From Nemertoderma westbladi (lineage: Eukaryota > Animalia > Xenacoelomorpha): DNA of 64,000 nt. This document shows positions 6,126-29,946 of the stretch, piece by piece; the stretch's first letter is position 1; each line of letters starts with the position of its first letter. The notes under the pieces were generated by a model. The model saw only the letters and a program-made list of their open reading frames with translations, was not told where the DNA came from and did no database searches. The DNA lies in the NCBI GenBank assembly GCA_032718475.1, contig JAUCBJ010008167.1, forward strand, positions 3,730-67,729, given 5' to 3'. A program made the position numbers and the translations under genes.

Positions 6126-8038
6126 TATTAGAAGAGACAGTAACAATACCTGCAATATCCTACTGTAAAGTTTGTGAATCAAATCATAAATCCGGCCTTC
6201 TCACCAAAACAGTAAACTCTAAGTAAGCGAATATATTGCAGTATCTATCTCTTATAACCGGTGAGGCAGAAAACAGTCTACGAGCAGACAAACTTCGATA
6301 AAACAAAATCCCGCGCAGCGAATCCTAAAATCAGGCTGACTCACTGACGGACTAAGGGGCTCGTATACTTTGCCGCGGTGTGATTTATATGGTTGGGCTA
6401 AAGAGACGCTAGCTAGGTACAGAGGCAGACATTTGGAGATGTCTAACTAGCGGGCAAAGCGCAGTACGGACAAAAGTTAATTTTATATATTTTGAGGTGT
6501 AAATAATATCTAACGCGCGTGTGTGATTCTGAACAGTCAAAGCAGTTTTGCTCCTTCATATATATAATTACTGGGTACGGTGTACATTTTACGAATATTC
6601 TAATTTTGTAACTTGTAGGTCCAATACTCACGAATGATAAGGTTCCTTCCCCTCTTGCGTATTTCCAGGACTCAAATTCAGGCATAAGGTTAATGCTACG
6701 CCCAGAATTCGGCAATTTTAATTTACCAGGCCCCTAATACTAAGAAGAAATGTGTTAGTTTACTACAGTAGGCGTACGGTTACAAATAGCTATCCTGGCT
6801 CTTATCTAGAATTTTAGTCACCTAGGTAGGCTGGGTAACTTCCTATCAGGACGTTGGCGGGGACACGGCAGATGTTAGTATATCCCTAATAGCCTCAATT
6901 TATTTGCGCCTAGTCGTAAACTGCCCTACCGCCTGAACGGTACAATCCTAATTTAGGTGAAACACAGCAACCCTCCTAGCCTACAAGTTCTAATGCAATG
7001 GACACCGTTGTACTACAAATAGTCGCAGACGCACCTGTACTTAGCAAGAGTTAGGCGTACAGTTTGCTGCACCCTACCAATGTGTATGCTTTGTACCGGT
7101 GTGCCTACGTCCTATCTGCGTACTAGTATCTGCCTGCTCTTTCCCTCCCCCCGTAGGAATATGAAGGTCTACTGCGGTTTTTTCCTGAATTAAAACAGTA
7201 CAGTCCCTAAGATGTAATTTTAGGCGTACAGCGTGTCACTACTTCTACCTTTGATCTTTGGTCTTACGCTTAGGTAGCAAGGCGTCGAACGCTGTCTAAC
7301 CTTTCAGGCGATGGGCGAATAACTGAGATGGTATTGCGGGTTGTCTCCTGTCTACATTCCCTTGATGTTCCCGTTCATTGCTGCGGCCCGATCTATAGCC
7401 GGCCATCCTGTTCCTAAGTGTGTTCACCGTAGTGAATCATGGTGAAAAGAAAAGCAGGTAGCGGTATTTCTGAATTTATTGCAGATAATAATACAAAATG
7501 TAATCTGAAAACTAATGACAGAATAAACAAATATCAGATAACTCAGAATAATTGTGAGAGATAGATATACTGAAGATTGAGAAGTGAACTAATGAACGAA
7601 ATCGCACCTTTTATACCAAATTTGTGCCGCAATCAATCGAGAAAATTCTCGATTGTTCTATAGGTTCTAACAGGTTTTTAAAGATAGCTATTGGTCCAGC
7701 TAATATATAACTTGCACGACATTGGTTACAATCTAATAACTGCAGTCTCATTGGTTAATCTAGGTACAGACAAATGCAATTTAATTTGTAGCGGTCAATT
7801 TAAATGAGTTGAAATTCTGTACAAAAAATAAATCGCACTTACTAGGATTCGAACTCAATACCTACTACACATATAATTTCCAACGCTCTACCGACTGAGC
7901 TACTGAACCACTTGACTAAAGATCGTACAATAGATATAACAAATACAAATGAGGACTCAAAGCAATCTTTTAGCAAAGTTAATTCGAATAAAAATAAAAT
8001 TTTGAAAATCCACGGCATTTAGGGAATATAATTCTATA
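6126..8038 (-). repeat. 3' LTR (1913 bp)
   Basis: About 11 substitutions versus 23038-24950 by manual comparison. Preceded on the minus strand by a short purine-rich tract GGAGCGG (8045-8039). Confidence 0.95.
7823..7909 (-). ncRNA. tRNA-like Pol III unit inside the LTR (copies at 24735-24821 minus and 28215-28298 plus)
   Basis: A box TAGCTCAGTCGG, B box GAGTTCGAATCC and a downstream TTTTTT. No convincing cloverleaf or anticodon arm. Confidence 0.55.
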
Positions 8039-8941: not shown

Positions 8942-10651
8942 TTATCGCTTAGTTGATCGAGCCCTGCCGCGTCCTCGAAAACTGCGCACAGGTGACTTTG
9001 CTCGCGATATGGGACTCGTGGGGCGAGTCACTGGTTTCGTTTGGACGTTGAGAGACGGTGCGACTATTTCCTCGCAAATTCGTCTATTTGGCATCCCAAA
9101 ACCTCGACCGATTCCTCGTGACCGATCAGTTGTCACTACAGTTGGTAGAACGTCTGGGAACTCGCGAGAAGCGGACGACGCAGACCCAAGAGCAGCTTGC
9201 GCCCCCTTTTGATCAGCTGGTGTGTGTCCCGATCCTCCTGTTGGTTCTCTAGGAAGCGATACCGTATCCCGAGTAATTCGAATAGTCGGCTCAACTCCCT
9301 TGCGTTCTTCTATATTAATAGACTTCTTTAACTGTTGGCCCACTTTCTGGACCCGTATGATCCTACCCTGTCCGTCCTCCCGAGGGTGACGTGCAGACGG
9401 CGCAACCGGAGTGGCTGGTATATTTTTCGCCTCTAGGACCTCCTCTTCCTCGAATACGCTCGCTCGTATACGTTTGTGGTAAAACGCGGCTCGGTACGCC
9501 CATGCGACGGTTAACCAAGCTCCTTTATTCCGCTTTTCAGTTCGGAAACGATCGAATTCACCATACGTGATGCGATTAACGACTTTCTGAAAATTCCACG
9601 TGTTTTTGTTATCCGGGTGAATCTGTAATAGATACTCGCGCACTACTCGGAATCCACTGTCGTGGGGCAAAATATCGACTACCTCGATAAGTTCGTCATA
9701 TTGGGGCATAGCGGAGATGTATCCTTCCGACATCATCGTTTGGGGATTTACCGCCCAAAATCCAAGATGCGCCCTCATCGGAAATCGTCTTCTTTGTGCC
9801 GATACATGTTCGTCGGCTAAATCTTCCCACTCATCGAATAATTTTCTCACGAGTTTTACAGATTCGTGTTCATAGGGTATGTCTCTCAGTTGGCATTCAG
9901 ATGCTCGATGCCCTTTTATATTGCAATAAGTACATTGAGCCATAAATCTCCAGCAAGTATAAAAGGTATGAGACCCTTGATCTCCACACCATCCACAGAT
10001 TAGCTGAGTCGTAGTAATGTGCTTTCCACTACACTTTGTCATATGATGTCCAGCGACGCCACATTTACCACACATCGTATTGGCAGGGTACCACACTCGT
10101 TCATATATAAGATCTCCAATCGGTCGAGCGCTTCCGCCCACACTATAATCGTAATCATCTGGATCTATGGGTTGGTAGGTTTCTGAGGGTTGTATACAAA
10201 CTATAGCATCTGTTGCTTCAAGTTGTCGAATCTCCGTCTGAGATTTCTTCGGGAGGTTCCTTTCTATCTCAAGAAGTTCCTCTAAAGGATCGTCAGTGAT
10301 CGTAGTAGTTACTTCGAAATCATCACCAAGGTGACCGATAGGAGCGCGCGTCTGCCGTGATTCATCCGTAATCTCCACGATACGTTCTCCTTCATAGGGT
10401 AACAATGTAAACATAGATGGTCTTTCGATAAGAGATCCCGCACAGCGAAGATATACGTCTCGAAATATACTAAATCCTGCTCGAGTAAAGGCATTACGCT
10501 GAGCGTCGGAGTTGTAGAAGGGTTCAAGGAATCGTCTAAACACGTCGGTATGAATTCTCCCTTCCATGTAGAACGTATGATCTTCTCCGAGACAAAGTGG
10601 ATGTCTTTTGAGAGTCCGAGACACAATGTCGGCGATTAGGCAAACATTCAC
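8942..10651 (-). CDS. Accessory ORF, C-terminal part: three CCHC-like zinc knuckles and a basic RG-rich tail
   Basis: Motifs CGKCGVAGHHMTKC, CGWCGDQGSHTFYTC and CTYCNIKGHRASEC; ends RGRGRARSTKR. Overlaps the upstream ORF in the +1 frame and starts with GTG, so it is probably one frameshifted gene with 10536-12650. Confidence 0.75.
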   Translation of the reverse strand: MNVCLIADIVSRTLKRHPLCLGEDHTFYMEGRIHTDVFRRFLEPFYNSDAQRNAFTRAGFSIFRDVYLRCAGSLIERPSMFTLLPYEGERIVEITDESRQTRAPIGHLGDDFEVTTTITDDPLEELLEIERNLPKKSQTEIRQLEATDAIVCIQPSETYQPIDPDDYDYSVGGSARPIGDLIYERVWYPANTMCGKCGVAGHHMTKCSGKHITTTQLICGWCGDQGSHTFYTCWRFMAQCTYCNIKGHRASECQLRDIPYEHESVKLVRKLFDEWEDLADEHVSAQRRRFPMRAHLGFWAVNPQTMMSEGYISAMPQYDELIEVVDILPHDSGFRVVREYLLQIHPDNKNTWNFQKVVNRITYGEFDRFRTEKRNKGAWLTVAWAYRAAFYHKRIRASVFEEEEVLEAKNIPATPVAPSARHPREDGQGRIIRVQKVGQQLKKSINIEERKGVEPTIRITRDTVSLPREPTGGSGHTPADQKGAQAALGSASSASREFPDVLPTVVTTDRSRGIGRGFGMPNRRICEEIVAPSLNVQTKPVTRPTSPISRAKSPVRSFRGRGRARSTKR

Positions 10652-12650
10652 TGACGACTCTTGCTAAATAATATTGTAGGACCGCTCTTGGAGGTGACGT
10701 AATAGCCCAATACACGCATCCTCTCCATTTAAGCTGTGATTCAAACTCACTCATATCTGGAGTATCACCTTCTCCATAAGTCTCAATATACTTGGTTCTC
10801 TTACTTTCCTTATAATCCCAATTGAATAACAGGTAGGAAATGTATCCAGTTCCAGTCTTCTGAGTATTATACTCACGAAAATATCCCTGTTCTATAGACC
10901 ACAAAATAAGAGGTCGAGTGTCGACGTAAGGTGTCGGTAGTCGGTCATCGCTGTCCGTCATGCCGGCGAAGTCGCTAATTAAGTCCTCCCTTACTCCTGA
11001 TCCAATCTTTACAACAGTTTTATCTAAAATCATGTTTCTTACCATCTTCGGTATCATTCTAGCGTCGATATTACAAGCTTGGTCCATCTTCTTTACTATG
11101 TGTCGCTTTGTATTTGCTGGAGGTATCGGCATTCGTTTGTCGCTCCTCTGTCTACTGAAAACGTGCAGGACTCCGTCCGCCGCTCTAATTTGTATAGTCT
11201 TAGAAGTCAAACTCTGTTGATGACTGCCGCCCTCGTTATCGTAAAACATGTAACCATTTTCCTGAAACGATCTAAACGTTCTATTCCATTCATCCAACAA
11301 TTCTTCCGAAGGTTGCCAAATCTTCTCTATGTCCTTATCATCTTCGAAACGAATAACCTTACCTCGCCAATCCGCGGCAATATCTGTATCCGACTCGAAG
11401 GTTCCGGTTCCAATCCATAAACGAATCGTCTTGGTTAAATATCCTTTCAAATTACTCGGAGCTATATCGGCACCAGCTCTATCCAGTTCCTTAAAGTCTT
11501 GAATATGAGGTGGAACGTTGTACACGACCTTTTGAGTAATATGTCTACGTAAATCATATATCTTACTCATATCGCTGAAAACAACTGCAGGAAGAAACTC
11601 CAAGTTTGAAATGATTTCTGGATGATCCACGATGGGTATTTCGTACGTCGTATCCTGTCGGACTGGTATACTAATAGGAAAATTGAGTGTCGTACTCAAT
11701 GGTTTCGTAGTTGAAGTACTATATGGTTGCATTTCTCTTGTCCTCTCCGGGGATGCAATCTGTAGTCTCTGAATAACGTTTTGAGCAAAGTTTATGCTCT
11801 CGAAAACTTCCGGTGTCATCTCCTTAGCTGGGGTTTGATCGTGTGACGTCCAATGGTAAGGTAGGCTCGCGAGTCTTCCGCCCCATTCTTCCATCTCACA
11901 TTTCTCGAAAGCCTTGTAGGCTCTGTATAGGCTAAGAGCTTCTTTCTTTTTGCGGGTTGACTGATTCGCCTCGTCCAGCGTAAGTTCAAATACATCGGGT
12001 TCAACAACCTTAGGTGGGTAAACGACAGTTTCTCCCGCCTTTGGTCCGGTCATAGCAAATGAATGATATGGATTCGATAAAGGATACCCTCCTTCCTGGT
12101 AGCGTAGTTGTTGATGGTTCGAACACCTCGCCAGTATCGGTTCGGGATTTTCCTTATTCAAACGCATCGGAATCGCATTTCGTTGTTCGCGCATACAAGA
12201 ACCGCATTGATAATAAAGTTTATAAACTGAAAATGCTTCCTTGGTTTCTCTATCGTCCCCTCGAGTTCGTCTGTAAAGGTGCATTCCATCGAATTCATCG
12301 CGTACCGCGGGCATAGGTTCGTGCGCCTTTAGGTATTGCATGGTATGATACAAACGACTAATTTCAGTATCGGGGTCTTCGCTAATGTCTCCCGTATCAC
12401 ACAAAGCGTCGTACGGGTAAAGTTCATTGAAGGTTCTGCGCAAACTTTCGATTCTTTCATTTAATGCGTTTTGTCTTCTCTTTAATACATTCGAGTCATA
12501 TTTAGTTCTCGCGAGTTTCGCTGTACTTTCTGATAATTCTTTTATACCAAATATAGTGTAGTCCTTGGCTCCAAATCTTTCGAATGGCGCTGCTGCCTCC
12601 TCTTGGATATCATATCCCCATCTCGGCTCTCCTTGTATCCCTTTCTCCAT
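10536..12650 (-). CDS. Accessory ORF, N-terminal part: DEDDy (WRN/EXD/MUT-7-like) 3'-5' exonuclease-like domain
   Basis: ExoI-like FYDNEG (11246-11229), TIQIR..DGVLHVF, ExoII-like ILDKTVVKIGSGVREDL (around 11030-10980) and YVDT. There is also an N-terminal CGSC...CSNH putative zinc site. Confidence 0.7.
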   Translation of the reverse strand: MEKGIQGEPRWGYDIQEEAAAPFERFGAKDYTIFGIKELSESTAKLARTKYDSNVLKRRQNALNERIESLRRTFNELYPYDALCDTGDISEDPDTEISRLYHTMQYLKAHEPMPAVRDEFDGMHLYRRTRGDDRETKEAFSVYKLYYQCGSCMREQRNAIPMRLNKENPEPILARCSNHQQLRYQEGGYPLSNPYHSFAMTGPKAGETVVYPPKVVEPDVFELTLDEANQSTRKKKEALSLYRAYKAFEKCEMEEWGGRLASLPYHWTSHDQTPAKEMTPEVFESINFAQNVIQRLQIASPERTREMQPYSTSTTKPLSTTLNFPISIPVRQDTTYEIPIVDHPEIISNLEFLPAVVFSDMSKIYDLRRHITQKVVYNVPPHIQDFKELDRAGADIAPSNLKGYLTKTIRLWIGTGTFESDTDIAADWRGKVIRFEDDKDIEKIWQPSEELLDEWNRTFRSFQENGYMFYDNEGGSHQQSLTSKTIQIRAADGVLHVFSRQRSDKRMPIPPANTKRHIVKKMDQACNIDARMIPKMVRNMILDKTVVKIGSGVREDLISDFAGMTDSDDRLPTPYVDTRPLILWSIEQGYFREYNTQKTGTGYISYLLFNWDYKESKRTKYIETYGEGDTPDMSEFESQLKWRGCVYWAITSPPRAVLQYYLARVVSECLPNRRHCVSDSQKTSTLSRRRSYVLHGRENSYRRV

Positions 12651-13330
12651 AATTAGAGGTGTAGTTACATAATCATTACTACTAGAGGGAATACAACAGA
12701 GTTTGTAGTTAGTTGTGAGGAGACGTGAGAGTTTCGTCTGCCCTTTGGGCTCGACAACGCTCTAACCTCCTACCCATAGCCTAAGATCTAGGGTTTCTTT
12801 AATGACACGCTGCTTCTTATCTAAAATTTTTGCCGAAATAAAAACGAATTTGGGCTAAACTGGCTGTGAGTCTAAAATACTCACTTTTTGATCCCAAACT
12901 ATTATCAGAAAATAAGCAGTCAAGAATTAGTAATAAATATAGGGGAGTCTATTTTGACGTAACTTATTGAAACAAGACCGTGTAAAATTTAATTTTAATT
13001 TTAATTAAAATTTAATTAAAATTTTAAGAAAGGCTCGCAAGTCTTCCTCTCTTGTTTCTCTAATTTTAAGTTCCACCCGACTGTACCCTGAAATCTATTC
13101 ACTGGAGAAAATTTTAAAAATTTTTCAAATCCAAATGGATTGTCTAAAATTTCGAAATGTCTCAATATTGTGAGTTCCAAGTAGAATTCCATTTCTTATA
13201 CCTACAAATCCCGCTCCTATGTGACACATAAGGGTACTACCCTCAATGTTCACATATAAAGACAATGGAATTCTACCGCTGTCCTTACTACAGTGTACAG
13301 GTACGTGGAAATCTATTTGTAAACTCCTAA

Positions 13331-15913
13331 TTATTTACTAATATTAGGTGGAGATTTGTAATCTCCAGACTCGTTACGAGTCTCTTCAAGAAGTACGAGA
13401 CGTTGTGTCGGTCTGTCAACTGTACGACCGTCAATTGTCCGTACCGTAACAGTTCTTGTCACTCCATCCATAGATGGATGTGTGGCTAAAATTACACCTG
13501 TTATCCAGAAGCGTCTTTTTAGATTCACTTCTGCTAACAGCACGTGATCTCCCGGCTTTAATGCGCGGGTGTTATTGTACCAGTTTGTTCTGGCAGAAAT
13601 AGAGTGCAAATAATGGTTTTGCCATATTTCCCAGAATTTGTTAGCTAGTAGTTGCGTGATTTTCCACGCTTTTCTACCGTAGCTATCGCCTTCTATTGGA
13701 ATAGAAATAGGCGTCAAAGTTGTCGGTGCCTGCATAAGCAGGTGTGCCGGTGTCAAAGCAAACTGAGATTGTTTGTCATCGGGTACTAATACTATTGGTC
13801 TAGTATTTAGTATTGCCTCGATTTCAACAAACAGTGTTGTCAGTTGGTCGTCTGTCAATATGTGGTTTACTGGAATGACCTTTGCCATGGCTGTCTTTAT
13901 AGATCTAATCAATCTCTCCCAGACTCTGCCTCTCCATGGACTATCTGGAGGATTAAACTTCCAAACAATCTTGTAAGGACGTAGTTCGTTTGAGATTTGA
14001 TCATGATCTAATTTCTTAAAGGCTCTAGCAATCTCATTTCGAGCACCAACAAAGTTTGTCCCTTGGTCTGAGTACAAGCATTTCACTAGTCCGCGTCTGG
14101 CGATAAATCGCCGCAATGCTAGTATAAACGCGTTGGTGGAAAGATCCATCACACGTTCAATATGAACTGCCCTACTGGACATATATGTGAAAATCAGTCC
14201 CCAGCGTTTTACTAGTATACGTCCACGTTTCGTATGTATGGGACCAAAGCAATCAATTCCAGTCTCTGTAAAAGGTGGTCTGAATGCTTGAAGTCGTGCT
14301 TGTGGAAGTTCACTCATTTCTTGGGTACCTATTCTAGAATGTACCTTTTTACAAATAATACACGTACGTGTCACTGAACTTATTGCTTTACTGGGTCTAA
14401 TTAATACAAATCTTGTACGTAAGTAGGAAAGACAGTGGTGTCTTCCAGCGTGTTTCAGATGAAAATGTGCGTCCAGTATCATTGCACGTTGTAGTTCGTG
14501 ATGCTGCGGTATTATTATTGGGTACCTAAAGTTTGTGTTAAAGTCAATGTTTTGAAGCCGAGATTTATGACAAATTAAGCCATTATAAATTATCGGACTC
14601 CAACTCAATATTGGTGACGACTTGATTGGTTGACCTTGATTTATAGATGTGAATTCGCGCGCGAAATATCGCAGTTGGTAATGGCGAATTAATTTAATCT
14701 CACACCTGTCAATCTCAGTCAATGTAAGTCGACGTGTGAAGTCTCGTTTGCCTTTAACGTATTGTACAAAACGTACAATCCACGCTAATTTTCGGCAAGC
14801 GTTTGTCCAAGAATCTGTTAGGTTTACAATACGGTCGACGTAAGTATTTGTGACGTCATCAGGTAAGTCAATGGAGATTTTGGAAGGTTTTGATTTACTA
14901 GAAGGGCCCATGGGTCCGCCGGTAGGTATTCCCTTGTTGACTGTTGATCCGTCCGGGTCTACAAGTAATTTGTCCTTCTTCGTCTTCTTACCTTGATTGT
15001 CAGTACTTTGTAAGTCGATCGTTAATGGTGGTTTGAACTCTATGGGGTCAGTGGGTTTCGGTAAACTTATTTTTCTGCCGATATTAATCCCGGGTCTCAC
15101 CATAGGTTGCAAGTTTGGTATGTCTCTTGAGCGCAGAGTAACACCTGTATTTACATTAGCGTAGGTACTACCCACATCTGTAATACATGAGGTTTCACCG
15201 TGCTTATGGTTGCTCAAGTGCGTCAAAATTGGTAGTTTGTCAATACAAGGCCGCTCCAATAGGGAAACTGCGGCTTTACTGTTAGTGAATACATTACTAA
15301 TGTCCGGTTGAACATTTTGTGACATGTCTGGTAAAATCTTTCGCGGAACATCCGGCGAAATATCTAGTGACGTGTCTGGCAAAACGTCTGGTTGACCGTC
15401 TAGTAACGTATCTGGTTGTTTGTCAATAGAAGGCCGCTCCAATAGAGAAACTGCGGCTTTACTATTTGTCAGTATGTTACTAGTGTCTGGTAGAACATTT
15501 TGTGATATGTCTGGCAAAATGTCTGGTTGGCCGTCTAGTAACGTGTCTGTTTGACCGTCTGGTAACGTGTCTGGTTGACCGTCTGGCGATATGTCTGGTG
15601 TAGAAAGGCTCGCAAGTCTTCCGTTCTTGACCTTTGAAGTTATCGCTTTCCATTTCGCCTTCGGTTTTTTCTTGAGTTTAGCCGCCGTCTTTTTCTTTGC
15701 TTTCCCTTTCTTTGGTTTTTTAATTTCCGCGTCTTTTGGGATAGTGTTAGACTTGTTGTCGTATAGTGGCGGCCAATGTTGTATTGATCCCTGCAAGAAC
15801 CGTGGTCCGTGCTGCCAAAATTCTTTGTTCTCCGGTTTACAAAATTCCTCAGGCATCATTCCTCGCGACGCAATATCGGCTGGGTTTTGTGGTCCGGGAC
15901 AATGTCGCCAATC
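13331..15913 (-). CDS. Pol C-terminus: end of RNase H region, low-complexity spacer, integrase (HHCC, DDE core, Pao-type C-terminal domain)
   Basis: Motifs DWRHCPGPQNPADIASRG, HFHLKH...CIICKK, GIDCFGP, SDQGTNF, WERLI and DGVTRTVTVRT..RPTQRLVLLE. In frame with the upstream pol ORF, separated only by TAA at 15916-15914. Confidence 0.92.
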   Translation of the reverse strand, partial: DWRHCPGPQNPADIASRGMMPEEFCKPENKEFWQHGPRFLQGSIQHWPPLYDNKSNTIPKDAEIKKPKKGKAKKKTAAKLKKKPKAKWKAITSKVKNGRLASLSTPDISPDGQPDTLPDGQTDTLLDGQPDILPDISQNVLPDTSNILTNSKAAVSLLERPSIDKQPDTLLDGQPDVLPDTSLDISPDVPRKILPDMSQNVQPDISNVFTNSKAAVSLLERPCIDKLPILTHLSNHKHGETSCITDVGSTYANVNTGVTLRSRDIPNLQPMVRPGINIGRKISLPKPTDPIEFKPPLTIDLQSTDNQGKKTKKDKLLVDPDGSTVNKGIPTGGPMGPSSKSKPSKISIDLPDDVTNTYVDRIVNLTDSWTNACRKLAWIVRFVQYVKGKRDFTRRLTLTEIDRCEIKLIRHYQLRYFAREFTSINQGQPIKSSPILSWSPIIYNGLICHKSRLQNIDFNTNFRYPIIIPQHHELQRAMILDAHFHLKHAGRHHCLSYLRTRFVLIRPSKAISSVTRTCIICKKVHSRIGTQEMSELPQARLQAFRPPFTETGIDCFGPIHTKRGRILVKRWGLIFTYMSSRAVHIERVMDLSTNAFILALRRFIARRGLVKCLYSDQGTNFVGARNEIARAFKKLDHDQISNELRPYKIVWKFNPPDSPWRGRVWERLIRSIKTAMAKVIPVNHILTDDQLTTLFVEIEAILNTRPIVLVPDDKQSQFALTPAHLLMQAPTTLTPISIPIEGDSYGRKAWKITQLLANKFWEIWQNHYLHSISARTNWYNNTRALKPGDHVLLAEVNLKRRFWITGVILATHPSMDGVTRTVTVRTIDGRTVDRPTQRLVLLEETRNESGDYKSPPNISK

Positions 15914-18900
15914 TTATTTTATTGAACGGTCTAGAATTTCCGCGCGACGGTTAGCTACGAATGTCTTGAATTCAAGTGTGTCGTTGTTTATGTAAAATAA
16001 AACCAACGTCGCGTCAGTCCAATAAAATATCTGTAAACTTGACTGTAGTTCTGTCTGTATAAGGTTCACGATGGTGGTTGACAGGGCTGCGGCTTGTAGC
16101 TCAGCTCGTGGTGTCGTCATATACTTAGTAGGCATTGTTTTTGCCTTAGAAGTAATGAGCGAAACATCGAATTCTTCTGAGTCTACTTGTCTGCGCAAGT
16201 ACGCTGCCACACCAAAGCCGTTGTCACTGGCGTCAGAAAAACAATGTAATTCCAAGTTGTCAGGAAATGTTGTTTGTAATGGAAAGTAGACTCTGGGTAT
16301 GGAATAATCCTCTAGCGAAGATAATTCTGCTTCCCAGGTTTTCCATAAGTCCACTTGGTCTGATGAGATCGGCTCGTCCCATGTCAGTCCATCCTTCCAA
16401 ATACTGCGCATATAAATGCGGGCTTGCAGTATTATTGGACTGATGAATCCTAATGGATCGAACAATCGTCTCAATTTTGACAAGCATGATCTCTTTGTCA
16501 GTGTGTTTTCTTGACTGTCCAGTCTCACCTTCACTCGAAAGTTGTCCGTGTTTGGGTCCCAAAAGAGCCCCAACACCTTGGTCGTCGGTAGTGGTTCGAA
16601 CTCTAGGTCTATGTCACCACCTCCACGCTCAGTCGTTCCGAATGAGTCTACTAATTCGGCACTGTTTGAGGCGAATTTGGTGAGGTTAAAACCTCCGCCC
16701 GCTAAGCAGTCCCGTAATTGATGTGCTACTGTTGTAGCACGTTCTACTGTGTCGCAACTCTGTAAACCGTCGTCGACGTAAAAGTCACGTTCCACAATCT
16801 TAATTATCTCTGGGTCATACATGTGTTTCTGATCCCTAGCGGCTTGCTTTAGGGCGTACATTGTACAGTTTGGGCTGTCCCTGGCACCGAAAACGCGAAC
16901 TTGCATTTGGTAAGTCGCCGGTGGTAGACTTAAGTCTCCTTCCGGGTACCAGAGGAACCTCAAACTGTCTCTGTCTCGCTCTAACGCTCTCACTTGGTGA
17001 AACATAGCTTCGACGTCGCAAGTAAAAGCTACTTGACGCTGACGGAAGCGCATAATCACCCCCATAAGATAATTATTCATGTTTTGTCCATCCATCAACT
17101 CGCTATTGAGGGACATTCCCTCAAACAGAGCCGCACAGTCATTGACTACACGTACTTTGTCTGGTTTGTCGGGGTGTCTCACGTAGTGATGTGGTAAGTA
17201 GTATGTCTGGTCTGTTACTATCTCTGGGTTAGTCATTCGGATAGCGTATCCCTTGGACAAATACGTCTCCATCTGAGTGTTGTACTGGAGATGGGCTTTC
17301 TCGTCCTTTAATAGACGTTGTCGTATTGAGTGTAGACGTCTTAAAGCTAGTGGATAGTTATTTATGAGTTTAGGACGTTGGTCACGCCATAGCATCCCTA
17401 CCTCATAATGTCCGTCCTCCGTCTGGCGGATAGTATCTTCCATGATCCTCAAAGATTGTTTCTCCTGTTCCGACATACATGGTTCGTAGCTACCAGGTTC
17501 AGCTGTATCTTGTTCTAACCACCTGATAGTCTTCTCCGTTAATTCTTTGTCCAATACAGCTTGTTCCACTTGATGATTTCTCAACGCGTCATCATCGATA
17601 TCGACGGGCATTGTTGAGGTTATTTGTGTAGGTAGACTCACAAGCCTTCCGGCGTTATCATCTGTCGTCGATGGAATCTCTGGCTGACTCGTCTTCTCCC
17701 CAAGTTCTAAACTCACCTGGTGGATTAGCTGCTCCTTGTGACTTATCATGCTAGTTACACGTCTGTCATGTTTTGTCGAATGTAGTGTAGTATGGTCCAC
17801 GTCGTGTGAAAAGGAATGAATTGAATTTGTAGTTAATAAACTACATGTACTTTGTACATCGTCTTCCTCGTCACTTATGTCCAGTGTGCGCACAGGCGCT
17901 CGAGTATACCACCCTATCGGCGTTCTACAGGCATATGCGTTTCCCACTATGACTGCCGATGGTCTGGTTTCCCACACTTGATGTAGGTTGAATTGGTCTG
18001 TCCCGATCAGCATTGCTACCGATCTATAATTGACAGGACATTCAGGTACACCAAGGTGTCTGAAATACTTACGGTCCTCCAAGGATTGTTCTGGGACAGG
18101 ACCTAGTAGGTTACTAAAGTCCTTGGTGGCCGCAAAAGTCAAATCCTTAAAGGGTAACAAAGACCTCTCCTTTTCGCTGTGTTGCGATTTTGGAAGAAGA
18201 GTGTCTAAGTTTAACTTAACTCGTGTCACTGGTATTGCAAGTTGTCCGTGCATACTACTTACGGTGTAACTGACGCGCTTACCTTGTCTGAGATCCGTCA
18301 CGACGTCAGCTATCTGCTCATCCACGTAGCTGTGAGATGAGGCTGAATCCAGGATAGCGTAGATTCTCTTGCACCCTTTTGTGCCAGTAATCTTAATCGG
18401 AATTACGCTGAATCCCTTTAGTTGGTCAGTCGTCAGAAGCACGATCGATGGTTGTTCGTCTCCATCGGAATATACGTCGTCGTCTTCTGACTCTTCGTCC
18501 GACGATCCGGATTGTTCTGAGAAACAATCCTTAATATGTGTCACGAAGGTTGGAGTCGTTTTCGATTCTCGATTCTTGTAGGCCGTATTACATTTCGCTG
18601 CTGCTTCCGGGTGTTCCCTGGCGAAGCGTTTTGTCGGCGTGTGGCTGTCTGTGTGGAGCAGACCGTCGTGGTTGCGTCCACAGGATGGACAAGTGTCGGT
18701 ATTTGGGCAATCTTTGCGAACGTGTCCGTGTCGCGTACACCGCCAACAAGAGTCCAATGGCCGTATCTGCAGCCGTCGTTCTTCCGAGTTTAACTCGCGA
18801 AACTGTTGACAACCTCTCAACTTGTGACCGATATACCGCTTGCCTAAATGCTCGCAGTATTGGCAGCCGCTGAAGTCGGTACTGAGTTGCTGTCTAGTCT

Positions 18901-20689
18901 GTTTTATCCCAATGGGCGCAGATACCCTACTACCGTCCGAGAATTGTCGTGTTTCCGTCGGTGTGGCGTAAGTGGCCGTCTTGGTGGATGTTGTCTGGGG
19001 TTTTTGTCGGTTTGAGGATGGCAAGGTGATTCCTTCTGCTACGATGTGCTGGTCAGTGTAGTTGGATCGAGTTTCTACCACTGCTTCCCTGGATATCAAA
19101 AGGTACACATCTTCCAGTTTTAAGAATCCACCCCGCTCTTCCCGCTGGTATTCGATCTTCCTCCACTCCCGACGAAGTCGATGGTGGAGTCGTCCTATGA
19201 TCTTTAATAGGACTGTAGGGGTATTCCCATAGTCAAGTTGTCCAATGGATCTCAAAGTAGTGATAGCGTTCTTTATTTCGTCAGCCAGTTTCAATAAGTC
19301 GACGGGTTTAGTAATAGCCCCTCCCTTACAGAGTTCCTCTATCACTGACCTGGCCATGCTGACTGTACCTCCGTATATCGAAGTTAAACGATCGTACGCT
19401 AGTTCGAAGGCGTCCGGTACACCAACGAAGGTCTCCGCCAAACGTTTAGGTTCTCCCGACAACGTTTGAAGCAGGTAATTAAACTTCTCCCGTGATGTAA
19501 AGGCGCACACGGCGATCTGAGATTCGATATAGTCTACGAAAGTGTGCCAGTGTTTTGAGCTACCGGAAAACTTAGGTGGTTGTTGCACCGGTAGTCCTTG
19601 TCTAGCTGCGAATTTCGCTATCTCCTCGGCAACGTTCAGAGTTTCGCGTCCTTGGTTGGTAATCTGGTTGATGTCCCTTCTTGGCGCTTTTCCCTGATAC
19701 GAAGTATTGGTCGATGGTATTTGTCTTTGCGGAATCTTTGGGTTTCTATTGTGTTCGAATTCGGAATTTCTCGGACTGTCGGTGTGAACTTCCTCCAAGC
19801 GTTCCTCGATCTGAGCCAACTTGTTAACAACTGGTCGCAGGATGTCGGCGAACTGTTGTGTACTGATTGCATCCGTTGGTTGTAACGCCTTCTGTGTTGG
19901 TGTATTCTGTGGAGGATTGTCGATAAATGAATTATCCGAACGCTCACGTTTACATTCGTCGGCCGCTCCTGTTCTAAATACCTCGCGTTCCGGGTAATCC
20001 GACTCGCTTGAAGTACTACTGTCGCCTGGATACGGTGGTCGACGTGCTCGTGTCCGTTGCGTCGTCCGAATTCTAACGTTTCGCTTTGGAACATCGTCCA
20101 CTGGTCTCCGTTGTTCGGTAGGCTCACAAGTCTTCCTCGAAGTCGTAGATTGCGATGTAAACTGGTTGAACGGTCGCGTATCCACTGGTCTCCGTTGTTC
20201 GGTAGGCTCACAAGTCTTCCTCGAAGTCGTAGATTGCGATGTAAACTGGTTGAACGGTCGCGTATCCACTGGTCTCCGTTGTTCGGTAGGCTCACAAGTC
20301 TTCCTCGAAGTCGTAGATTGCGATGTAAACTGGTTGAACGGTGGTCGGACGACAGCTTTTGAATCCAAAGGCCTTGTAGGCCTAAACGTCATTGGGTATT
20401 CGTAGTGCGTAACTGGTTTAGGTGTCAAAGGTGGACTCACCTGTTTTGTCGTTAGTAGTGCAGGTCCAGTCAACAAACTACTACGATCTGTAATCGGTGG
20501 GTTACTTACCTTGACTTTCAAAATAGGCGACGACGTTGCTCTTGACGGTATGAATTTGTCTGGAATAACCAACCTGTGTTCCGTCGCACCATGGATAGGA
20601 GAAATATCACTACTACCCGCAATCGAAACAGGTTCCTTAGTCATAATTGGTGCAAACATAGGAGTTACTTGTGGGAATCGTTGACACAA
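15914..20689 (-). CDS. Gag-Pol polyprotein: Pao gag, zinc knuckles, aspartic protease, reverse transcriptase, RNase H
   Basis: Motifs PPKFSG (gag), CWRCTRHGHVRKDC and CPSCGRNHDGLLH, ILDSAS (protease, about 18350), YLPHH..KVRVVND, FYVDD (about 16775), FDPLGF, FSDAS and TPRAEL. Confidence 0.95.
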   Translation of the reverse strand: MCQRFPQVTPMFAPIMTKEPVSIAGSSDISPIHGATEHRLVIPDKFIPSRATSSPILKVKVSNPPITDRSSLLTGPALLTTKQVSPPLTPKPVTHYEYPMTFRPTRPLDSKAVVRPPFNQFTSQSTTSRKTCEPTEQRRPVDTRPFNQFTSQSTTSRKTCEPTEQRRPVDTRPFNQFTSQSTTSRKTCEPTEQRRPVDDVPKRNVRIRTTQRTRARRPPYPGDSSTSSESDYPEREVFRTGAADECKRERSDNSFIDNPPQNTPTQKALQPTDAISTQQFADILRPVVNKLAQIEERLEEVHTDSPRNSEFEHNRNPKIPQRQIPSTNTSYQGKAPRRDINQITNQGRETLNVAEEIAKFAARQGLPVQQPPKFSGSSKHWHTFVDYIESQIAVCAFTSREKFNYLLQTLSGEPKRLAETFVGVPDAFELAYDRLTSIYGGTVSMARSVIEELCKGGAITKPVDLLKLADEIKNAITTLRSIGQLDYGNTPTVLLKIIGRLHHRLRREWRKIEYQREERGGFLKLEDVYLLISREAVVETRSNYTDQHIVAEGITLPSSNRQKPQTTSTKTATYATPTETRQFSDGSRVSAPIGIKQTRQQLSTDFSGCQYCEHLGKRYIGHKLRGCQQFRELNSEERRLQIRPLDSCWRCTRHGHVRKDCPNTDTCPSCGRNHDGLLHTDSHTPTKRFAREHPEAAAKCNTAYKNRESKTTPTFVTHIKDCFSEQSGSSDEESEDDDVYSDGDEQPSIVLLTTDQLKGFSVIPIKITGTKGCKRIYAILDSASSHSYVDEQIADVVTDLRQGKRVSYTVSSMHGQLAIPVTRVKLNLDTLLPKSQHSEKERSLLPFKDLTFAATKDFSNLLGPVPEQSLEDRKYFRHLGVPECPVNYRSVAMLIGTDQFNLHQVWETRPSAVIVGNAYACRTPIGWYTRAPVRTLDISDEEDDVQSTCSLLTTNSIHSFSHDVDHTTLHSTKHDRRVTSMISHKEQLIHQVSLELGEKTSQPEIPSTTDDNAGRLVSLPTQITSTMPVDIDDDALRNHQVEQAVLDKELTEKTIRWLEQDTAEPGSYEPCMSEQEKQSLRIMEDTIRQTEDGHYEVGMLWRDQRPKLINNYPLALRRLHSIRQRLLKDEKAHLQYNTQMETYLSKGYAIRMTNPEIVTDQTYYLPHHYVRHPDKPDKVRVVNDCAALFEGMSLNSELMDGQNMNNYLMGVIMRFRQRQVAFTCDVEAMFHQVRALERDRDSLRFLWYPEGDLSLPPATYQMQVRVFGARDSPNCTMYALKQAARDQKHMYDPEIIKIVERDFYVDDGLQSCDTVERATTVAHQLRDCLAGGGFNLTKFASNSAELVDSFGTTERGGGDIDLEFEPLPTTKVLGLFWDPNTDNFRVKVRLDSQENTLTKRSCLSKLRRLFDPLGFISPIILQARIYMRSIWKDGLTWDEPISSDQVDLWKTWEAELSSLEDYSIPRVYFPLQTTFPDNLELHCFSDASDNGFGVAAYLRRQVDSEEFDVSLITSKAKTMPTKYMTTPRAELQAAALSTTIVNLIQTELQSSLQIFYWTDATLVLFYINNDTLEFKTFVANRRAEILDRSIK
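20098..20340 (-). repeat. 84-bp tandem repeat (about 2.9 copies) in gag
   Basis: Encodes the repeated 28-aa unit PFNQFTSQSTTSRKTCEPTEQRRPVDTR. Confidence 0.95.
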
Positions 20690-22149
20690 TCTTTTACTAA
20701 TTGTCGTTCCCGTCCGGGTGCTCCTACGCTTCCTTCCTTCTTCCGTTCCTGAATTTGGCGATGTCTTACCTCTATCTGGTCCAAGTCATGTCCGTCTCGA
20801 GATCTCATTGATCGATCGCGGGCCTTTTGATCCAGATCTTCCTCGGCGTTCGCTAATTCTCTCGCCTTCTTCTCGAGTTCGAAATGAAGTTTAGCTGTCT
20901 TCTCTCGTTGTTCCGTTTGTTGTCGTTGCGCCTCAAACTCCGCTTGTCGTATAGCGGATTGAGCTTTTATTTGCCGTGTTTTCATTTCGGCCCGTGCTTC
21001 CGAAACTAACCTTTCTCGCTTTAATTCTGCCGTTTGTCGCTCTAATTCTGCCGCTGCCGTTTGTCGCTCTAATTCTGCCGCTGCCGTTTGTCGCTCTAAT
21101 TCTGCCGCTGCGTTTCGTTGCGCTAAATCAGCCGCTGCCGTTCGTTGGGCAATGTCTACCTCTAACCTTTCTACTTCAGCTGCTTCTAATTCAGCTTGTT
21201 CCTGTAGATGAGAGATTCTCGCTACGTTCGCAACGCGTAGCTTCTCTTCCTCTACTGCTGCCTGCATCACTAGAAGTTGAGCTTGTTCCTCCATTTCTCG
21301 TCGTTGTCGGTAGAATTCTTGCTGTTGTCGAGCAACTTCTGACGTGACCATACTTCCCTCGCCGATTTCGCTACGAATACTTACCAACGATTGATTTAGT
21401 ATTCCTGGTACTAGTTCGATTTGTGCGAGTGAAGTTTCCCTCGTATATTCCGGCACGGTTTCCAAATCGCCGACGTCTTCGCCGCACATACGTAAGTGGT
21501 CCGTCAGATGTTTCAATTGTCCATCTAGTCGGTACAGTTCCTGTTCTTCCTCGGGCTGCAATAATTCGTCCGAAACTGACTCACCTAACAACTGGTCCGC
21601 TTGTTCCTGTTGTATCTGCCTAATCGTCGACTTAAACTGAATCAGTTTCTCTCTAGCGATCATTAGTTTCTCGAGGATTCTAAGTTGTGTGTCCATATCC
21701 TGTCTCTGTCTAGCTAGATCTTGTAGACTGATAAGGTTATCTACGGACTTATGTACTCTACTTTGTACTCTAACCTGGAGGGTGTAGAACTCAAACCGAG
21801 ACATCGGAGCGGTCAACTCGTCTAATATGCGTTGGCCTTCTCCAATACTCCTGGTAATATGCGCCATGTAACCGCCGACGCTTCTAACCACACTCTCCTG
21901 GCTTCCTGCTGAACTTACCATGTCCGTTTCCCTGTATCTAGGTTGCGGAACAGTTAGAAAGTCCTCGGTCCTGCCGTCGCCTCGTACTACGGCATCCGGT
22001 ACTCCCGTTGGATGTACTGGTGACGCACACGGTGTAGGTTCGGTAGGCTCGCGAGTCTTCCCCTGTAGATCTTCCGCTGCTGACTAATCCGCGTCACATG
22101 AGTCATAGTCGGTAGGTGTATTCTTCGTATAGTCTTGTTTGTCACTCAT
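20665..22149 (-). CDS. Gag N-terminal coiled-coil region (ORF1), interrupted by one in-frame TAG
   Basis: E/Q/R/A-rich helical sequence with AAAELERQT repeats. The ATG at 22149 is in frame with 21921, with a TAG at 22086-22084. It joins the next ORF by a -1 shift between about 20785 and 20665. Confidence 0.8.
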
Positions 22150-22951
22150 TTCGGTAGTTGTAAGTCAAGTAAAGTGAGTGTCAAAGTATCAAACTTACCG
22201 TATTTTATCTAAACGGTACTAATTACAGTCATATAAAATTAGCCTACCGGCCGATTTTATAGCAGATGGATAAAATTAGCCTAAACGGCCAATTTTACAG
22301 CAAATAAATGTCACGGTATAAGTATATAATAAAATTAGCCTAGCGGCCAATTTTATAACAAATAAATCGGATAACGATATGCGTTATCAAAAGGTAAATA
22401 AAATACAATAATACGGACTAATTCAGCAATGAACAAAGAAATCGTACGGAATGCATAAATACTTGAGACAGTGGAACCCACAATAATTTTAACTAATACG
22501 GTAATGCCTAACTTATGTATGCAACTTTTCGAATTCACCCACTCCAATAATTCTCCAGAAAAACAGATTCCCAGATACAAACCGGACGTGAACCTTTCCG
22601 TTTTTAACGTTGCGGACGAAGCGCGATTTTCCCAACCAAAGTTGTTGAGTTATCTATCTCCCAAACTTGCTAAACACGGTCTTGCTCCCGTTACAGTCTA
22701 GAAATGAGTTCTGAATCCTGAAAAACAAAAGAGTTAGGTTTTACTTTTACGAAAATTTTTGTACCGGTACAATATGGTATTTAAACCCTTTTAAACACCG
22801 GTATTCAATTCCAAAAAATATTTTACACGCGGTTCAAATCAAATTTTATTTCAAAAAAAAATTAGCACTTAGCTAATCAAATATAAATTTTTACCTCAAA
22901 ATACAAAATTTTCAAATAACTTTAGTCCTACCGAACCGTAGTTCAGTAAAA

Positions 22952-23037
22952 CATATTCCTACTATTTTAGGAAATATGTTAAATAATACCATATTCCTAC
23001 TATTATAGGAAATATGTTAAAATAATCATATTCCTAC
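22952..23037 (-). promoter_or_regulatory. Non-canonical primer-binding region: three copies of GTAGGAATATG (37-38 bp period) abutting the 5' LTR
   Basis: Plus-strand CATATTCCTAC at 22952, 22990 and 23027. No TGG-starting tRNA PBS is present. Confidence 0.6.
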
Positions 23038-24950
23038 TATTAGAAGAGACAGTAACAATACCTGCAATATCCTACTGTAAAGTTTGTGAATCAAATAATA
23101 AATCCGGCCTTCTCACCAAAACAGTAAACTCTAAGTAAGCGAATATATTGCAGTATCGATCTCTTATAACCGGTGAGGCAGAAAACAGTCTACGAGCAGA
23201 CAAACTTCGATAAAACAAAATCCCGCGCAGCGAATCCTAAAATCAGGCTGACTCACTGACGGACTAAGGGGCTCGTATACTTTGCCGCGGTGTGATTTAT
23301 ATGGTTGGGCTAAAGAGACGCTAGCTAGGTACAGAGGCAGAGATTTGGAGATGTCTAACTAGCGGGCAAAGCGCAGTACGGACAAAAGTTAATTTTATAT
23401 ATTTTGAGGTGTAAATAATTTCTAACGCGCGTGTGTGATTCTGAACAGTCAAAGCAGTTTTGCTCCTTCATATATATAATTACTGGGTACGGTGTACATT
23501 TTACGAATATTCTAATTTTGTAACTTGTAGGTCCAATACTCACGAATGATAAGGTTCCTTCCCCTCTTGCGTATTTCCAGGACTCAAATTCAGGCATAAG
23601 GTTAATGCTACGCCCAGAATTCGGCAATTTTAATTTACCAGGCCCCTAATACTAAGAAGAAATGTGTTAGTTTACTACAGTAGGCGTACGGTTACAAATA
23701 GCTATCCTGGCTCTTATCTAGAATTTTAGTCACCTAGGTAGGCTGGGTAACTTCCTATCAGGACGTTGGCGGGGACACGGTAGATGTTAGTATATCCCTA
23801 ATAGCCTCAATTTATTTGCGCCTAGTCGTAAACTGCCCTACCGCCTGAACGGTACAATCCTAATTCAGGTGAAACACAGCAACCCTCCTAGCCTACAAGT
23901 TCTAATGCAATGGATACCGTTGTACTACAAATAGTCGCAGACGCACCTGTACTTAGCAAGAGTTAGGCGTACAGTTTGCTGCACCCTACCAATGTGTATG
24001 CTTTGTACCGGTGTGCCTACGTCCTATCTGCGTACTAGTATCTGCCTGCTCTTTCCCTCCCCCCGTAGGAATATGAAGGTCTACTGCGGTTTTTTCCTGA
24101 ATTAAAACAGTACAGTCCCTAAGATGTAATTTTAGGCGTACAGCGTGTCACTACTTCTACCTTTGATCTTTGGTCTTACGCTTAGGTAGCAAGGCGTCGA
24201 ACGCTGTCTAACCTTTCAGGCGATGGGCGAATAACTGAGATGGTATTGCGGGTTGTCTCCTGTCTACATTCCCTTGATGTTCCCGTTCATTGCTGCGGCC
24301 CGATCTCTAGCCGGCCATCCTGTTCCTAAGTGTGTTCACCATAGTGAATCATGGTGAAAAGAAAAGCAGGTAGCGGTATTTCTGAATTTATTGCAGATAA
24401 TAATACAAAATGTAATCTGAAAACTAATGACAGAATAAACAAATATCAGATAACTCAGAATAATTGTGAGAGATAGATATACTGAAGATTGAGAAGTGAA
24501 CTAATGAACGAAATCGCACCTTTTATACCAAATTTGTGCCGCAATCAATCGAGAAAATTCTCGATTGTTCTATAGGTTCTAACAGGTTTTTAAAGGTAGC
24601 TATTGGTCCAGCTAATATATAACTTGCACGACATTGGTTACAATCTAATAACTGCAGTCTCATTGGTTAATCTAGGTACAGACAAATGCAATTTAATTTG
24701 TAGCGGTCAATTTAAATGAGTTGAAATTCTGTACAAAAAATAATTCGCACTTACTAGGATTCGAACTCAATACCTACTACACATATAATTTCCAACGCTC
24801 TACCGACTGAGCTACTGAACCACTTGACTAAAGATCGTACAATAGATATAACAAATACAAATGAGGACTCAAAGCAATCTTTTAGCAAAGTTAATTCGAA
24901 TAAAAATAAAATTTTGAAAATCCACGGCATTTAGGGAATATAATTCTATA
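23038..24950 (-). repeat. 5' LTR (1913 bp)
   Basis: Direct repeat of 6126-8038, flanked by the TSD GGTAG. Confidence 0.95.
24387..24666 (-). promoter_or_regulatory. LTR Pol II promoter (three CCAAT boxes, TATA box) and poly(A) signal
   Basis: CCAAT at 24666, 24637 and 24606 (about 30-bp spacing), TATAAAA at 24527-24521 and AATAAA at 24392-24387. All are conserved in the solo LTR. Confidence 0.6.
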
Positions 24951-27281: not shown

Positions 27282-27558
27282 CAATAATATCTGTCCACTC
27301 TGCCTCCCACCATCGCCAACCAATAATATCTGTCCACTCTGCCTCCCACCATCATCGCCAACCAATAATATCTGTCCACTCTGCCTCCCACCATCGCCAA
27401 CCAATAATATCTGTCCACTCTGCCTCCCACCATCGCCAACCAATAATATCTGTCCACTCTGCCTCCCACCATCACCAACCAATAATATCTGTCCACTCTG
27501 CCTCCCACCATCGCCAACCAATAATATCTGTCCACTCTGCCTCCCACCATCGCCAACA
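27282..27558. repeat. 39-bp minisatellite, 7 copies
   Basis: Unit CAATAATATCTGTCCACTCTGCCTCCCACCATCGCCAAC; one unit has an extra CAT. Confidence 0.95.
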
Positions 27559-28085: not shown

Positions 28086-29946
28086 TATAGAATTATATTC
28101 TCATAAATGCCGTGGATTTTCAAAATTTTATTTTGTTCGAATTAATTTGCTATAAAGATTACATTAAGTCCTCATTTGCATTTACCATATCTATTTGTAT
28201 AACATTGTTCAAGTGGTTCAGTAGCTCAGTCGGTTAAGCGTTGGAAATTCGTGTAGTAGGTATCGAGTTCGAATCCTAGTAAGTGTGAATTATTTTTTGT
28301 GCTAAGTTTCAACTCATTTAAATTAACCGCTACGAATTAAATTACATTTGCTCAAGGTAGATTAACCAATAAGATTGCAGTTATTAGATAGTAACCAATG
28401 TCGTGCAAGATACGCAAGATCGCTGGACCAATGATTATCTTTAAAACCCTAGTAGAACTCATAGAACAATCTAGATTTATCTCGATTGATTGCAGCACAA
28501 ATTTGCTATAAAAGGTGCGATTTGTTCATTAGTTATCACTTAATCTCAATCACTATTTCACTCTTGTTACATTTATTGTATATTAGTTATTGTTTAATTT
28601 GTAATAAAGTTAGAAATATTTATACGTCTGTTTTTTACTATGTTTCACACGGTGAACCCAACTGAAGGACAGATGGCAGGCTAAACATCGGACAGCGGCA
28701 ATAGACGGGAACATCGGAGGAATGTAGAAGGAGACAACCCGCAATACCCATTCTTAAGTTATTCGCCCATCGCCTGAAAGGTTAGACAGCGTTCGATGCC
28801 TTGCTACCTAAGTGTAAGACCTAAGATCGAAGGTAGAGGTAGTGACACGCTGTGCGCTAAAAATTACATCTAGGGACTGTACTGTCTTAATTCAGAGAAA
28901 CCCGCAGTGGACCTTCACATTCCTACGGGGGGAGCGCAGGCAGAACGATACTAGTACACAGATACAGTAGGACGCAGGCACACCAGTACAAGGCATACAC
29001 ATTGTAGGGTGCAGCAAGCTGTACGCCTAACTCTTGCTAAGTATAGGTGTGTCGGGGACTGTTTGTAGTACAACGGTGTCCATTTGCGTTAGAACTTGTA
29101 GGACAGGAAGGGTTACTGTTTTTACCTGAAATAGGATTGCACCGTTCAGGCGGTAGGGTAGTTTATTACTAGGCGCAAATAAATTGAGGCTATTAGGGAT
29201 ACTAACATCTACCGTGTCCCCGCCGACATTCTGATAGGAAGTTGCCGTGCCCACCTAGGCAACCAAAATTCTAGATAAGAACGCCAGGCTAGCTATTTTG
29301 TAACTGTACGCCTACTGTAGTAAACTAACACATTTCTTCTTAGTATTAGGGACCTGGTAAATTAAATTGCCGAATTCTGGGCGTAGTATTAACCTTATGC
29401 CTGAATTTGAGTCCTGGAAATACACAAAAAGGGGAAGGAGCCTTATCATTCGTGAGTATTGGACCTACAAGCTATAAAATTAGAATATTTGTAAAATGTA
29501 CACCGGACCCAGTAATTATATATGTGAAGGATCAAAACTGATTTCGACTGTTAGAATCAAGACACACACGCGTTAGAAATTATTTACACCTCAAAATATA
29601 TAAAATAATTTTTGTCCGTACTGCACTTTGCCCGCTAGTTAGACATTTCTGCACCTAGCTAGCGTCTCTCTCGCCCAACCATATAAATCACACCGCGGCA
29701 AAGTATACGAGCGCCCTTAGTCCGTCAGTGAGTCAGCCTGATTTTAGGATTCGCTGCGCGGGATTTTGTTTTATCGAAGTTTGTCCGTTCGTAGACTGTT
29801 TTCTGCCTCACCGGTGATAAGAGACTAATACTGCAATAGTTTTGCTCACTTAGAGTTTACTGTTTTGGTGAGAAGGCCGGATTTATGATTTGATTCACAG
29901 ACTTTACAGTAGGATATTGCAGGTATTAGGTACGTCTCTTCCAACA
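28086..29946 (+). mobile_element. Solo LTR of a diverged subfamily of the BEL/Pao element
   Basis: Reverse-complement homologue of 6126-8038 over its whole length. Termini TATAGAATT...CTTCCAACA. TSD TCTGC at 28081-28085 and 29947-29951. Confidence 0.92.

Follow-up and report, generated by a model that had tools for sequence, protein, structure and literature searches.

Introduction

Self-priming of reverse transcription has been shown in the fission yeast retrotransposon Tf1, whose primer is the first 11 nt of its own transcript. In the accessible part of one study (bioRxiv 10.1101/2022.12.06.519325), Tf1 priming needs a central duplex and two flanking duplexes, and tandem insertion of Tf1 is dealt with in the available text of PMC11042837. 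As far as the accessible portions of the first source and of PMC4600332 go, Tf1/Tf2 (S. pombe), Tj1 (S. japonicus), Tosmo1-3 and the Tf1/sushi group resemble the element described here in having a primer-binding site (PBS) that is the complement of 11 nt within the 5' LTR and no tRNA site. The sources, in the same portions, also give the Tf1/sushi group a potential further duplex between PBS-adjacent and primer-adjacent sequence, a potential that local pairing predicts here too. Neumann et al. 2019 (PMC6317226, accessible part) used a working criterion for a putative self-primer, namely at least 10 bp of complementarity located 0-5 bp from the LTR, and by this criterion self-priming was predicted from sequence for the plant lineages Tcn1 (Ty3/gypsy) and TAR, including Houba as well as Osr-1 (Ty1/copia), which differ from our element in superfamily and host. 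The consulted part of PMC3601003 mentions hairpin priming in chromoviruses only.

The ICTV profile of the Belpaoviridae (PMC8742986) gives an 18-nt PBS for tRNA-Arg or tRNA-Gly as the rule, together with LTRs of 0.2-1.2 kb and a genome of 4.2-10 kb, which agrees with the statement of an earlier note on this DNA that BEL/Pao elements are normally tRNA-primed. Such a PBS is a typical trait of the family and not a basis of its classification. A term search in the available text of a BEL/Pao survey (PMC3118150) and of the Sinbad paper (PMC554778) returned no discussion of the PBS, and self-priming of BEL elements is not reported in the consulted parts of PMC13524379, PMC11662393, PMC5659011 and PMC5603734. 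Nor does it appear in any title or abstract opening of the literature searched, most subscription papers and the Repbase notes lying outside that scope. Here we analyse a window of 64,000 nt from Nemertoderma westbladi (contig JAUCBJ010008167.1, assembly GCA_032718475.1), in which one element is best read as a BEL/Pao retrotransposon that works like the Tf1/sushi group without being a member of it.

Results

The window holds a minus-strand BEL/Pao retrotransposon that is young and, at 18.8 kb, unusually large (Table 1). The element totals 18,825 bp, with LTRs of 1,913 bp each, and is flanked by a 5-bp target site duplication (TSD), CTACC, at 24955-24951 and 6125-6121. Five public runs contain the window or part of it, three of them with at least half of its words. 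All five consist of contigs, and RNA is recorded for none. Eleven contigs of one run (X1), with a loose end at 24951, join both flanks without the element, confirming its outer limits. The copy is broken, by a frame change near 20700 and by a stop (15916-15914) that separates RNase H from integrase. Its LTR termini are non-canonical, with TA at 24950-24949 and 23039-23038. A change of LTR ends from TG/CA to TA is described in the accessible part of PMC5659011 for the Ty1/copia elements TARE1 (tomato) and AcCOPIA1 (onion); TA termini are thus common to these and to our BEL/Pao element, which has TA at both ends, the solo LTR reading TA...CA. The purine tract upstream of the 3' LTR is short and interrupted.

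Table 1. Features of the element and its relatives in the window (positions counted from the first base of the window; energies and RNA structures are predictions).
Feature	Position	Strand	Remarks
5' LTR	23038..24950	-	self-comparison; ends TA...TA
3' LTR	6126..8038	-	11 substitutions relative to 5' LTR
Solo LTR, sister subfamily	28086..29946	+	85% identical; ends TA...CA; TSD TCTGC; one change in candidate primer
PBS unit 1	23027..23037	-	11 nt, abuts LTR; at 23026 only this copy has a twelfth complementary base
PBS unit 2, tandem duplicate	22990..23000	-	from sequence
PBS unit 3	22952..22962	-	downstream context is that of most family copies
Candidate self-primer	24065..24075	-	LTR positions 876-886; exact PBS complement; duplex -15.0 kcal/mol
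Candidate self-primer copy, 3' LTR	7153..7163	-	sequence match
Imperfect inverted PBS copies in spacers	23006..23016 and 22978-22968	-	predicted local hairpins compete with long-range duplex
G-rich run directly 3' of candidate primer	24054..24064	-	best local partner for LTR 3' end; predicted second duplex
Pyrimidine motif TCTCTTCT near LTR 3' end	23042..23049	-	partner of G-run; TCTCTTC recurs in other PBS-joined LTR-end types
Leader hairpin, directly after PBS	22925..22952	-	12 bp, UACG loop; -15.5 kcal/mol, z -6.6, 0/200 shuffles as stable
Rod-like RNA domain (predicted)	23825..24145	-	buries candidate primer when RNA starts upstream of about 24110
Promoter-like module	24490..24666	-	three CCAAT boxes (24666, 24637, 24606), TATAAAA 24527, initiator-like about 24497; boxes kept in solo LTR
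AATAAA	23811..23816	-	250 nt downstream of candidate primer; kept in solo LTR
AATAAA	24392-24387	-	105 nt past 24497; kept in solo LTR
Upstream gag-region ORF	20665..22083	-	coiled-coil-rich; frame differs from next ORF
gag-protease-RT-RNase H ORF	15914..20785	-	DUF1759, Peptidase_A17 (Pao); YVDD and RNase H acidic residues; stop precedes integrase part
Integrase part	13331..15913	-	same frame past stop; Integrase_H2C2, DUF5641
Accessory ORF 1	10536..12761	-	C-terminal part WRN/DnaQ-exonuclease-like by language-model features only
Accessory ORF 2	8942..10663	-	three CCHC-type knuckles; overlaps accessory ORF 1 in another frame

The Pol of the element was classed as Pao-type on a Peptidase_A17 match (5e-42) together with DUF1759, DUF5641 and Integrase_H2C2, in the order protease-RT-RNase H-integrase between the LTRs. 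Among the 120 RT-RNase H relatives listed, identities were 39-44% (31% in one case), and all 120 carry PF05380 and are BEL/Pao polyproteins. The named relatives are mostly from marine invertebrates, the best among those 120 (39-44%) occurring in bivalves, sea urchins and corals. Sinbad, Suzu, Tas, BEL, Pao, Dan and Flow are the named BEL/Pao clades. No chromodomain family matched the element Pol, which does not qualify as that of a Ty3/gypsy chromovirus, and no relative of Pol was found in the metagenome contigs searched. In-frame tandem repeats lengthen gag-pol at 20097-20342 (84-bp unit), 21012-21142 (27-bp) and 15311-15601 (24-bp).

By language-model features only, accessory ORF 12761-10536 may encode a WRN-like 3'-5' exonuclease-like protein: its similarity to PF01612 clusters was 0.93, in a score class into which shuffled proteins fall 4-10 times in 100, with 177 of 256 features shared and WRN-like 3'-5' exonucleases making up 24 of 30 matches. 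Compared by eye with what we take to be the consensus, the ORF has motifs 1 and 2, and an Asp is missing from the third catalytic motif. The ORF had no match in Pfam HMMs, PDB sequences, 1.84 billion representatives or longer proteins, and two single-sequence structure models were unusable (pLDDT about 30). An exonuclease has reportedly been described in the Cer (BEL) elements of C. elegans; the accessible text of the literature searched gave no confirmation of it.

The earlier note had placed directly after the 5' LTR, on the element strand, a 12-nt site whose exact complement lies within the LTR. Its coordinates proved right: the exact 12-mer is found at 24076-24065 (-) and 7164-7153 (-), with the complement at 23026-23037, and the solo-LTR copy at 28915-28926 (+) has one mismatch. 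The site follows the 5' LTR with a gap of zero and without TGG, the LTR ends being fixed by the 5-bp TSDs. As had also been claimed, the 3' end of the duplex falls at the LTR boundary, since the base next to the LTR is the first of the site and no extension into the LTR is possible. The pairing over 12 nt is exact in this copy but does not extend to the family, in which the match is 11 nt: the twelfth base varies, as it is unmatched in units 2 and 3 and in single-unit copies, and 23025-23026 vary in contigs, giving a family duplex of 11 bp. This 11-nt PBS at the LTR boundary is complementary to the 5' LTR and not to a tRNA 3' end, which places it within the working criterion of Neumann et al. 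There is no 18-nt PBS complementary to a tRNA-Arg or tRNA-Gly 3' end, the site being 11 nt long and lacking TGG.

A feature that the earlier note had not noticed is that the PBS is triplicated in this copy (23037, 23000 and 22962; period 37-38 nt). The inverted copies in the spacers are predicted to form hairpins with the PBS at -8.4 and -8.0 kcal/mol. An exact complement in the LTR was found for 48 of 116,248 background 12-mers outside the LTR family (4e-4), the rate for 11-mers being 1.2e-3, and Markov models of orders 1-2 gave an expectation of 1.3-1.6e-4 for a 12-mer match in the LTR. When the 908 positions of the leader were scanned, the sole 12-nt match to the LTR was at offset 0.

Contigs from four runs (X1-X4), representing three samples since X1 and X2 are one sample, were compared over 22925-23115. 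In X1-X3, depth over the duplicated spacers (22967-23022) was 130-1,900, against 47,000-73,000 over PBS unit 3, depth being summed over contigs and not a copy number; this contrast suggests that most family copies have one PBS site. The family is high-copy and polymorphic. Across the joints and loose ends of X1-X4, at least four different LTR ends are joined directly to the same PBS, and all keep TCTCTTC a few bases before the end. A TGG PBS in other copies, named in the earlier note as evidence that would speak against self-priming, follows the LTR end in none of the 22 loose ends and four joints listed (23 further entries fall outside that list).

From the single position at which the solo LTR departs from the site, a 23029 T>C change is expected in some PBS copies. 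This allele was found at a depth of 251.6/738.4 in X2 (2 contigs) and 88.1/262.6 in X3 (1 contig); the substitution table of X1 gave 0/194.7, and X4 has no cover there. A single-unit loose end at 23030 with the same change was present in X1, X2 and X3. Among four listed substitutions it is the only one inside the 11-mer (about 1 in 33 if unweighted), and neither the PBS change nor the LTR change sits at a CpG. No substitution is listed at the matching position of PBS unit 3 (22954), where most depth is, so that an allele of this type is probably rare among single-unit copies. The LTR allele of the solo-LTR variant was not among the 40 of 155 variants listed. Thus, of the compensatory change sought in the earlier note, the predicted PBS allele exists, but no contig is long enough to link it to the LTR allele. 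The G at the changed PBS position pairs with either LTR allele, making the change tolerable to any partner.

Folding was predicted on RNAs of 1.2-1.6 kb, and these predictions are weak evidence. For RNAs starting at 24075, 24076, 24080 or 24096, predicted pairing of the site with a PBS unit was 0.98-0.99, the local hairpins notwithstanding. For starts at 24110, 24140, 24180 and 24250 it was 0.21, 0, 0 and 0, and for a start at 24497 it was 0, because the predicted rod-like domain (about 24145-23825) buries the site. The energy of this domain was -121 versus -87 +/- 5.5 in crude shuffles, and that of its solo-LTR counterpart -108 versus -92 +/- 5.9.

For pairing with the LTR end, windows at the G-run ranked 1-2 of 1,853 in the 5' LTR and 1-3 of 1,801 in the solo LTR, forming a single region in each. 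These windows were picked after viewing the sequence and were then varied over 90 settings: the result holds when the end segment includes the whole pyrimidine motif and windows are short (mostly 0-3 rival regions), and is poor for the shortest ends (up to 35 rivals) and the longest solo-LTR windows (up to 8). Whole-RNA ensembles did not favour this second duplex (0.6-0.7 expected pairs). A third pretzel duplex was not found, the best partners reaching -7 to -8.6 kcal/mol versus -15.5 for the leader self-hairpin. An extension of the duplex upstream of the site was set aside: it reaches -24 kcal/mol but ranks only 161 of 1,893 and 379 of 1,841 windows. A primer made by splicing is not needed, the complement being contiguous, and unpairing a putative 24179-24097 intron in an RNA starting at 24497 freed no site, nor did two controls. 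By motif reading, 23061 (-) near the LTR end is splice-donor-like and 22718 (-) in the leader is strongly acceptor-like; splicing would remove the PBS from the mRNA.

Where the RNA starts and ends determines which geometries are workable. Several LTR motifs read as CCAAT, TATAAAA, initiator and AATAAA signals, their use as promoter being putative; the promoter-like module lies 420 nt upstream of the candidate primer. A second TATA at 23301 is kept in the solo LTR. No TATA-like element is present at -30 from the candidate primer site; the sequence at that point is AT-rich and variable, most depth carrying T>C at 24103. The strongest putative promoter (24527/24497), followed by AATAAA after 105 nt, resembles a normal U3-R-U5 junction. 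Were these upstream ends (the 24497 promoter and the first AATAAA) in use, cis cleavage at 24065 would separate R from the template. A cis cut at 24065/24064 would work only if the RNA ends beyond that point, hence near the second AATAAA. Were R defined by the first promoter and the first AATAAA, the primer would have to come in trans; with the first promoter and the second AATAAA in use, the primer could also be the site's copy in the 3' LTR.

Several further observations concern the LTR. Depth in X4 was 7,000-26,000 over its first ~470 bp (24478-24993) versus mostly 400-2,500 elsewhere, so that this segment may be common to another repeat and the long LTR may be composite. A degenerate LTR-end-plus-PBS motif lies at 23080-23065 (-), about 40 nt inside the LTR end, and another LTR-end type in X1-X4 has a 9-nt PBS-like copy within U5; such copies inside LTR ends suggest that the LTR may have grown via priming at a downstream duplicate of the site. 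Near the LTR start, 24830-24735 (-) is a tRNA-like stretch with A-box-like and B-box-like motifs followed by a T run, also found in the 3' and solo LTRs, which may be a SINE head or a Pol III promoter inside U3. It had no ARAGORN or Rfam match; as a source of the primer this stretch (~24820-24740) was rejected, having no PBS complement either and folding no better than shuffles. The viral contigs searched gave no match to the LTR.

Elsewhere in the window, there are a 1.26-kb duplication of 97.6% identity (39427-40682 and 44265-45523) and, at 45362-46317 and 55790-58905, an RT-like LINE fragment and related fragments. Considered as a second test case, the duplicated pair was rejected, lacking LTR-type ends or a TSD at its aligned limits. 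An open frame of 542 codons at 52214-53842 (+) has weak leucine-rich-repeat matches, and tandem arrays occur at 54876-55488 (52-bp unit, about 12 copies) and 27282-27557 (39-bp unit, 7 copies).

Discussion

The core of the earlier note, tRNA-independent self-priming, is supported by the lack of TGG in the listed copies, by the predicted PBS allele in public contigs and by agreement with the criterion of Neumann et al., evidence that consists of DNA only. Minus-strand DNA synthesis is likely to be primed by an LTR-derived piece of the element's own RNA and not by a tRNA. We consider self-priming highly probable when Tf1-like and other self-priming geometries are taken together, and Tf1-like self-priming in this BEL/Pao family probable.

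The Tf1-like model requires an RNA 5' end at about 24076-24096. The RNA would loop back over ~1,030 nt, allowing 24075-24065 to pair with the PBS, and a duplex may form between the LTR end and the G-run after the primer. Cleavage at 24065/24064, for which the element RNase H is the most likely enzyme, as in Tf1, would leave a 3' OH exactly at the LTR boundary; the RNase H acidic residues are present in the element Pol. RT would then copy ~1,030 nt and transfer through the repeat ending near AATAAA at 23816. In such a cycle the PBS would be recopied from the primer each time, passing a change in the LTR site to the PBS, which would account for the paired alleles.

The element differs from the Tf1/sushi group in being BEL/Pao and not a Ty3/gypsy chromovirus, in its loop of ~1,030 nt, in a candidate primer that is only putatively the RNA 5' end, and in lacking a TATA at -30 and a detectable third pretzel duplex. 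With the Belpaoviridae (Semotivirus) it shares the Pao peptidase A17, DUF1759, DUF5641, the RT-RNase H-integrase order and the 5-bp TSD; it departs from their profile in its 11-nt self-complementary site, its 1.9-kb LTRs, its length of 18.8 kb and an exonuclease-like accessory region that replaces env.

Could a host RNA, either an internal tRNA fragment or another small RNA, be the primer, with the LTR site a captured or convergent copy? Priming by tRNA is the stated rule for the Belpaoviridae (PMC8742986), and half-tRNA priming occurs in Ty1/copia lineages according to the accessible part of PMC6317226. A mature tRNA 3' end is excluded here by the lack of TGG. One register of the 11-mer would fit an anticodon loop with CCU (Arg), a reading of our own against what we take to be the invariant tRNA positions. 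However, none of 116 metagenome loci carrying the arm and a T-loop motif in one anticodon-arm register is a tRNA by ARAGORN, and none of six relaxed mitochondrial-mode tRNA calls contains the arm in the primer sense, in a scan of 54 of the 64 parts of a mostly microbial metagenome collection, which is not the host's tRNA set. Moreover, the surroundings of the LTR site are not tRNA-like, and a host primer would leave the paired alleles and the placement of the G-run unexplained; we regard it as unlikely. A chance match in a degenerate PBS region gains something from the length of the LTR (1.9 kb), its several GTAGG/CCTAC words and the rearranged PBS region of this copy, but the background rate of 4e-4 at a fixed position, the family-wide conservation and the finding of the predicted allele make it extremely improbable.

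The pairing might also be real but structural, acting in packaging, dimerisation or a translation switch, with another site or primer used for synthesis. That the site lies within a strongly predicted rod-like domain, and that the PBS can hairpin locally in this copy, looks like alternative conformations. Yet the duplex ends exactly at the LTR boundary, a point set by the position of a primer 3' end, no other PBS-like site follows the LTR, and the same site abuts several different LTR ends, which renders a purely structural role quite unlikely. We give the same low probability to self-priming in another geometry, in which transcription would begin at 24497 and a second RNA would supply the primer in trans, or the 3' LTR copy (7163-7153) would supply it once the 3' end had been cut or trimmed, possibly by the exonuclease-like protein. 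The promoter-like module is conserved in the solo LTR, the element has a 3'-5' exonuclease-like ORF with zinc knuckles, and a primer from the 3' copy would leave the 5' template whole, 24497-24065 serving as R; against this, folding predictions bury the site in RNAs that carry upstream sequence, and the exonuclease call comes from one language-model search, the third catalytic motif presumably lacking its Asp. In its 3'-LTR form, which we hold to be very unlikely, the RNA end would loop to the PBS and the exonuclease-like protein would trim the tail to the 11-bp duplex. Priming would then run from end to start with neither tRNA nor RNase H cut, and the rod-like domain would be a switch exposing the site. 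That the accessory nuclease helps to form the primer is speculative.

The mechanism itself is known; what is likely to be new about the preferred, self-priming reading is BEL/Pao as its carrier, self-priming having so far been described for other retrotransposon groups. If true, tRNA-free priming would occur in all three main LTR superfamilies, BEL/Pao being the third. This would bear on whether self-priming is ancestral or was repeatedly invented, and would explain BEL elements missed by PBS-based annotation.
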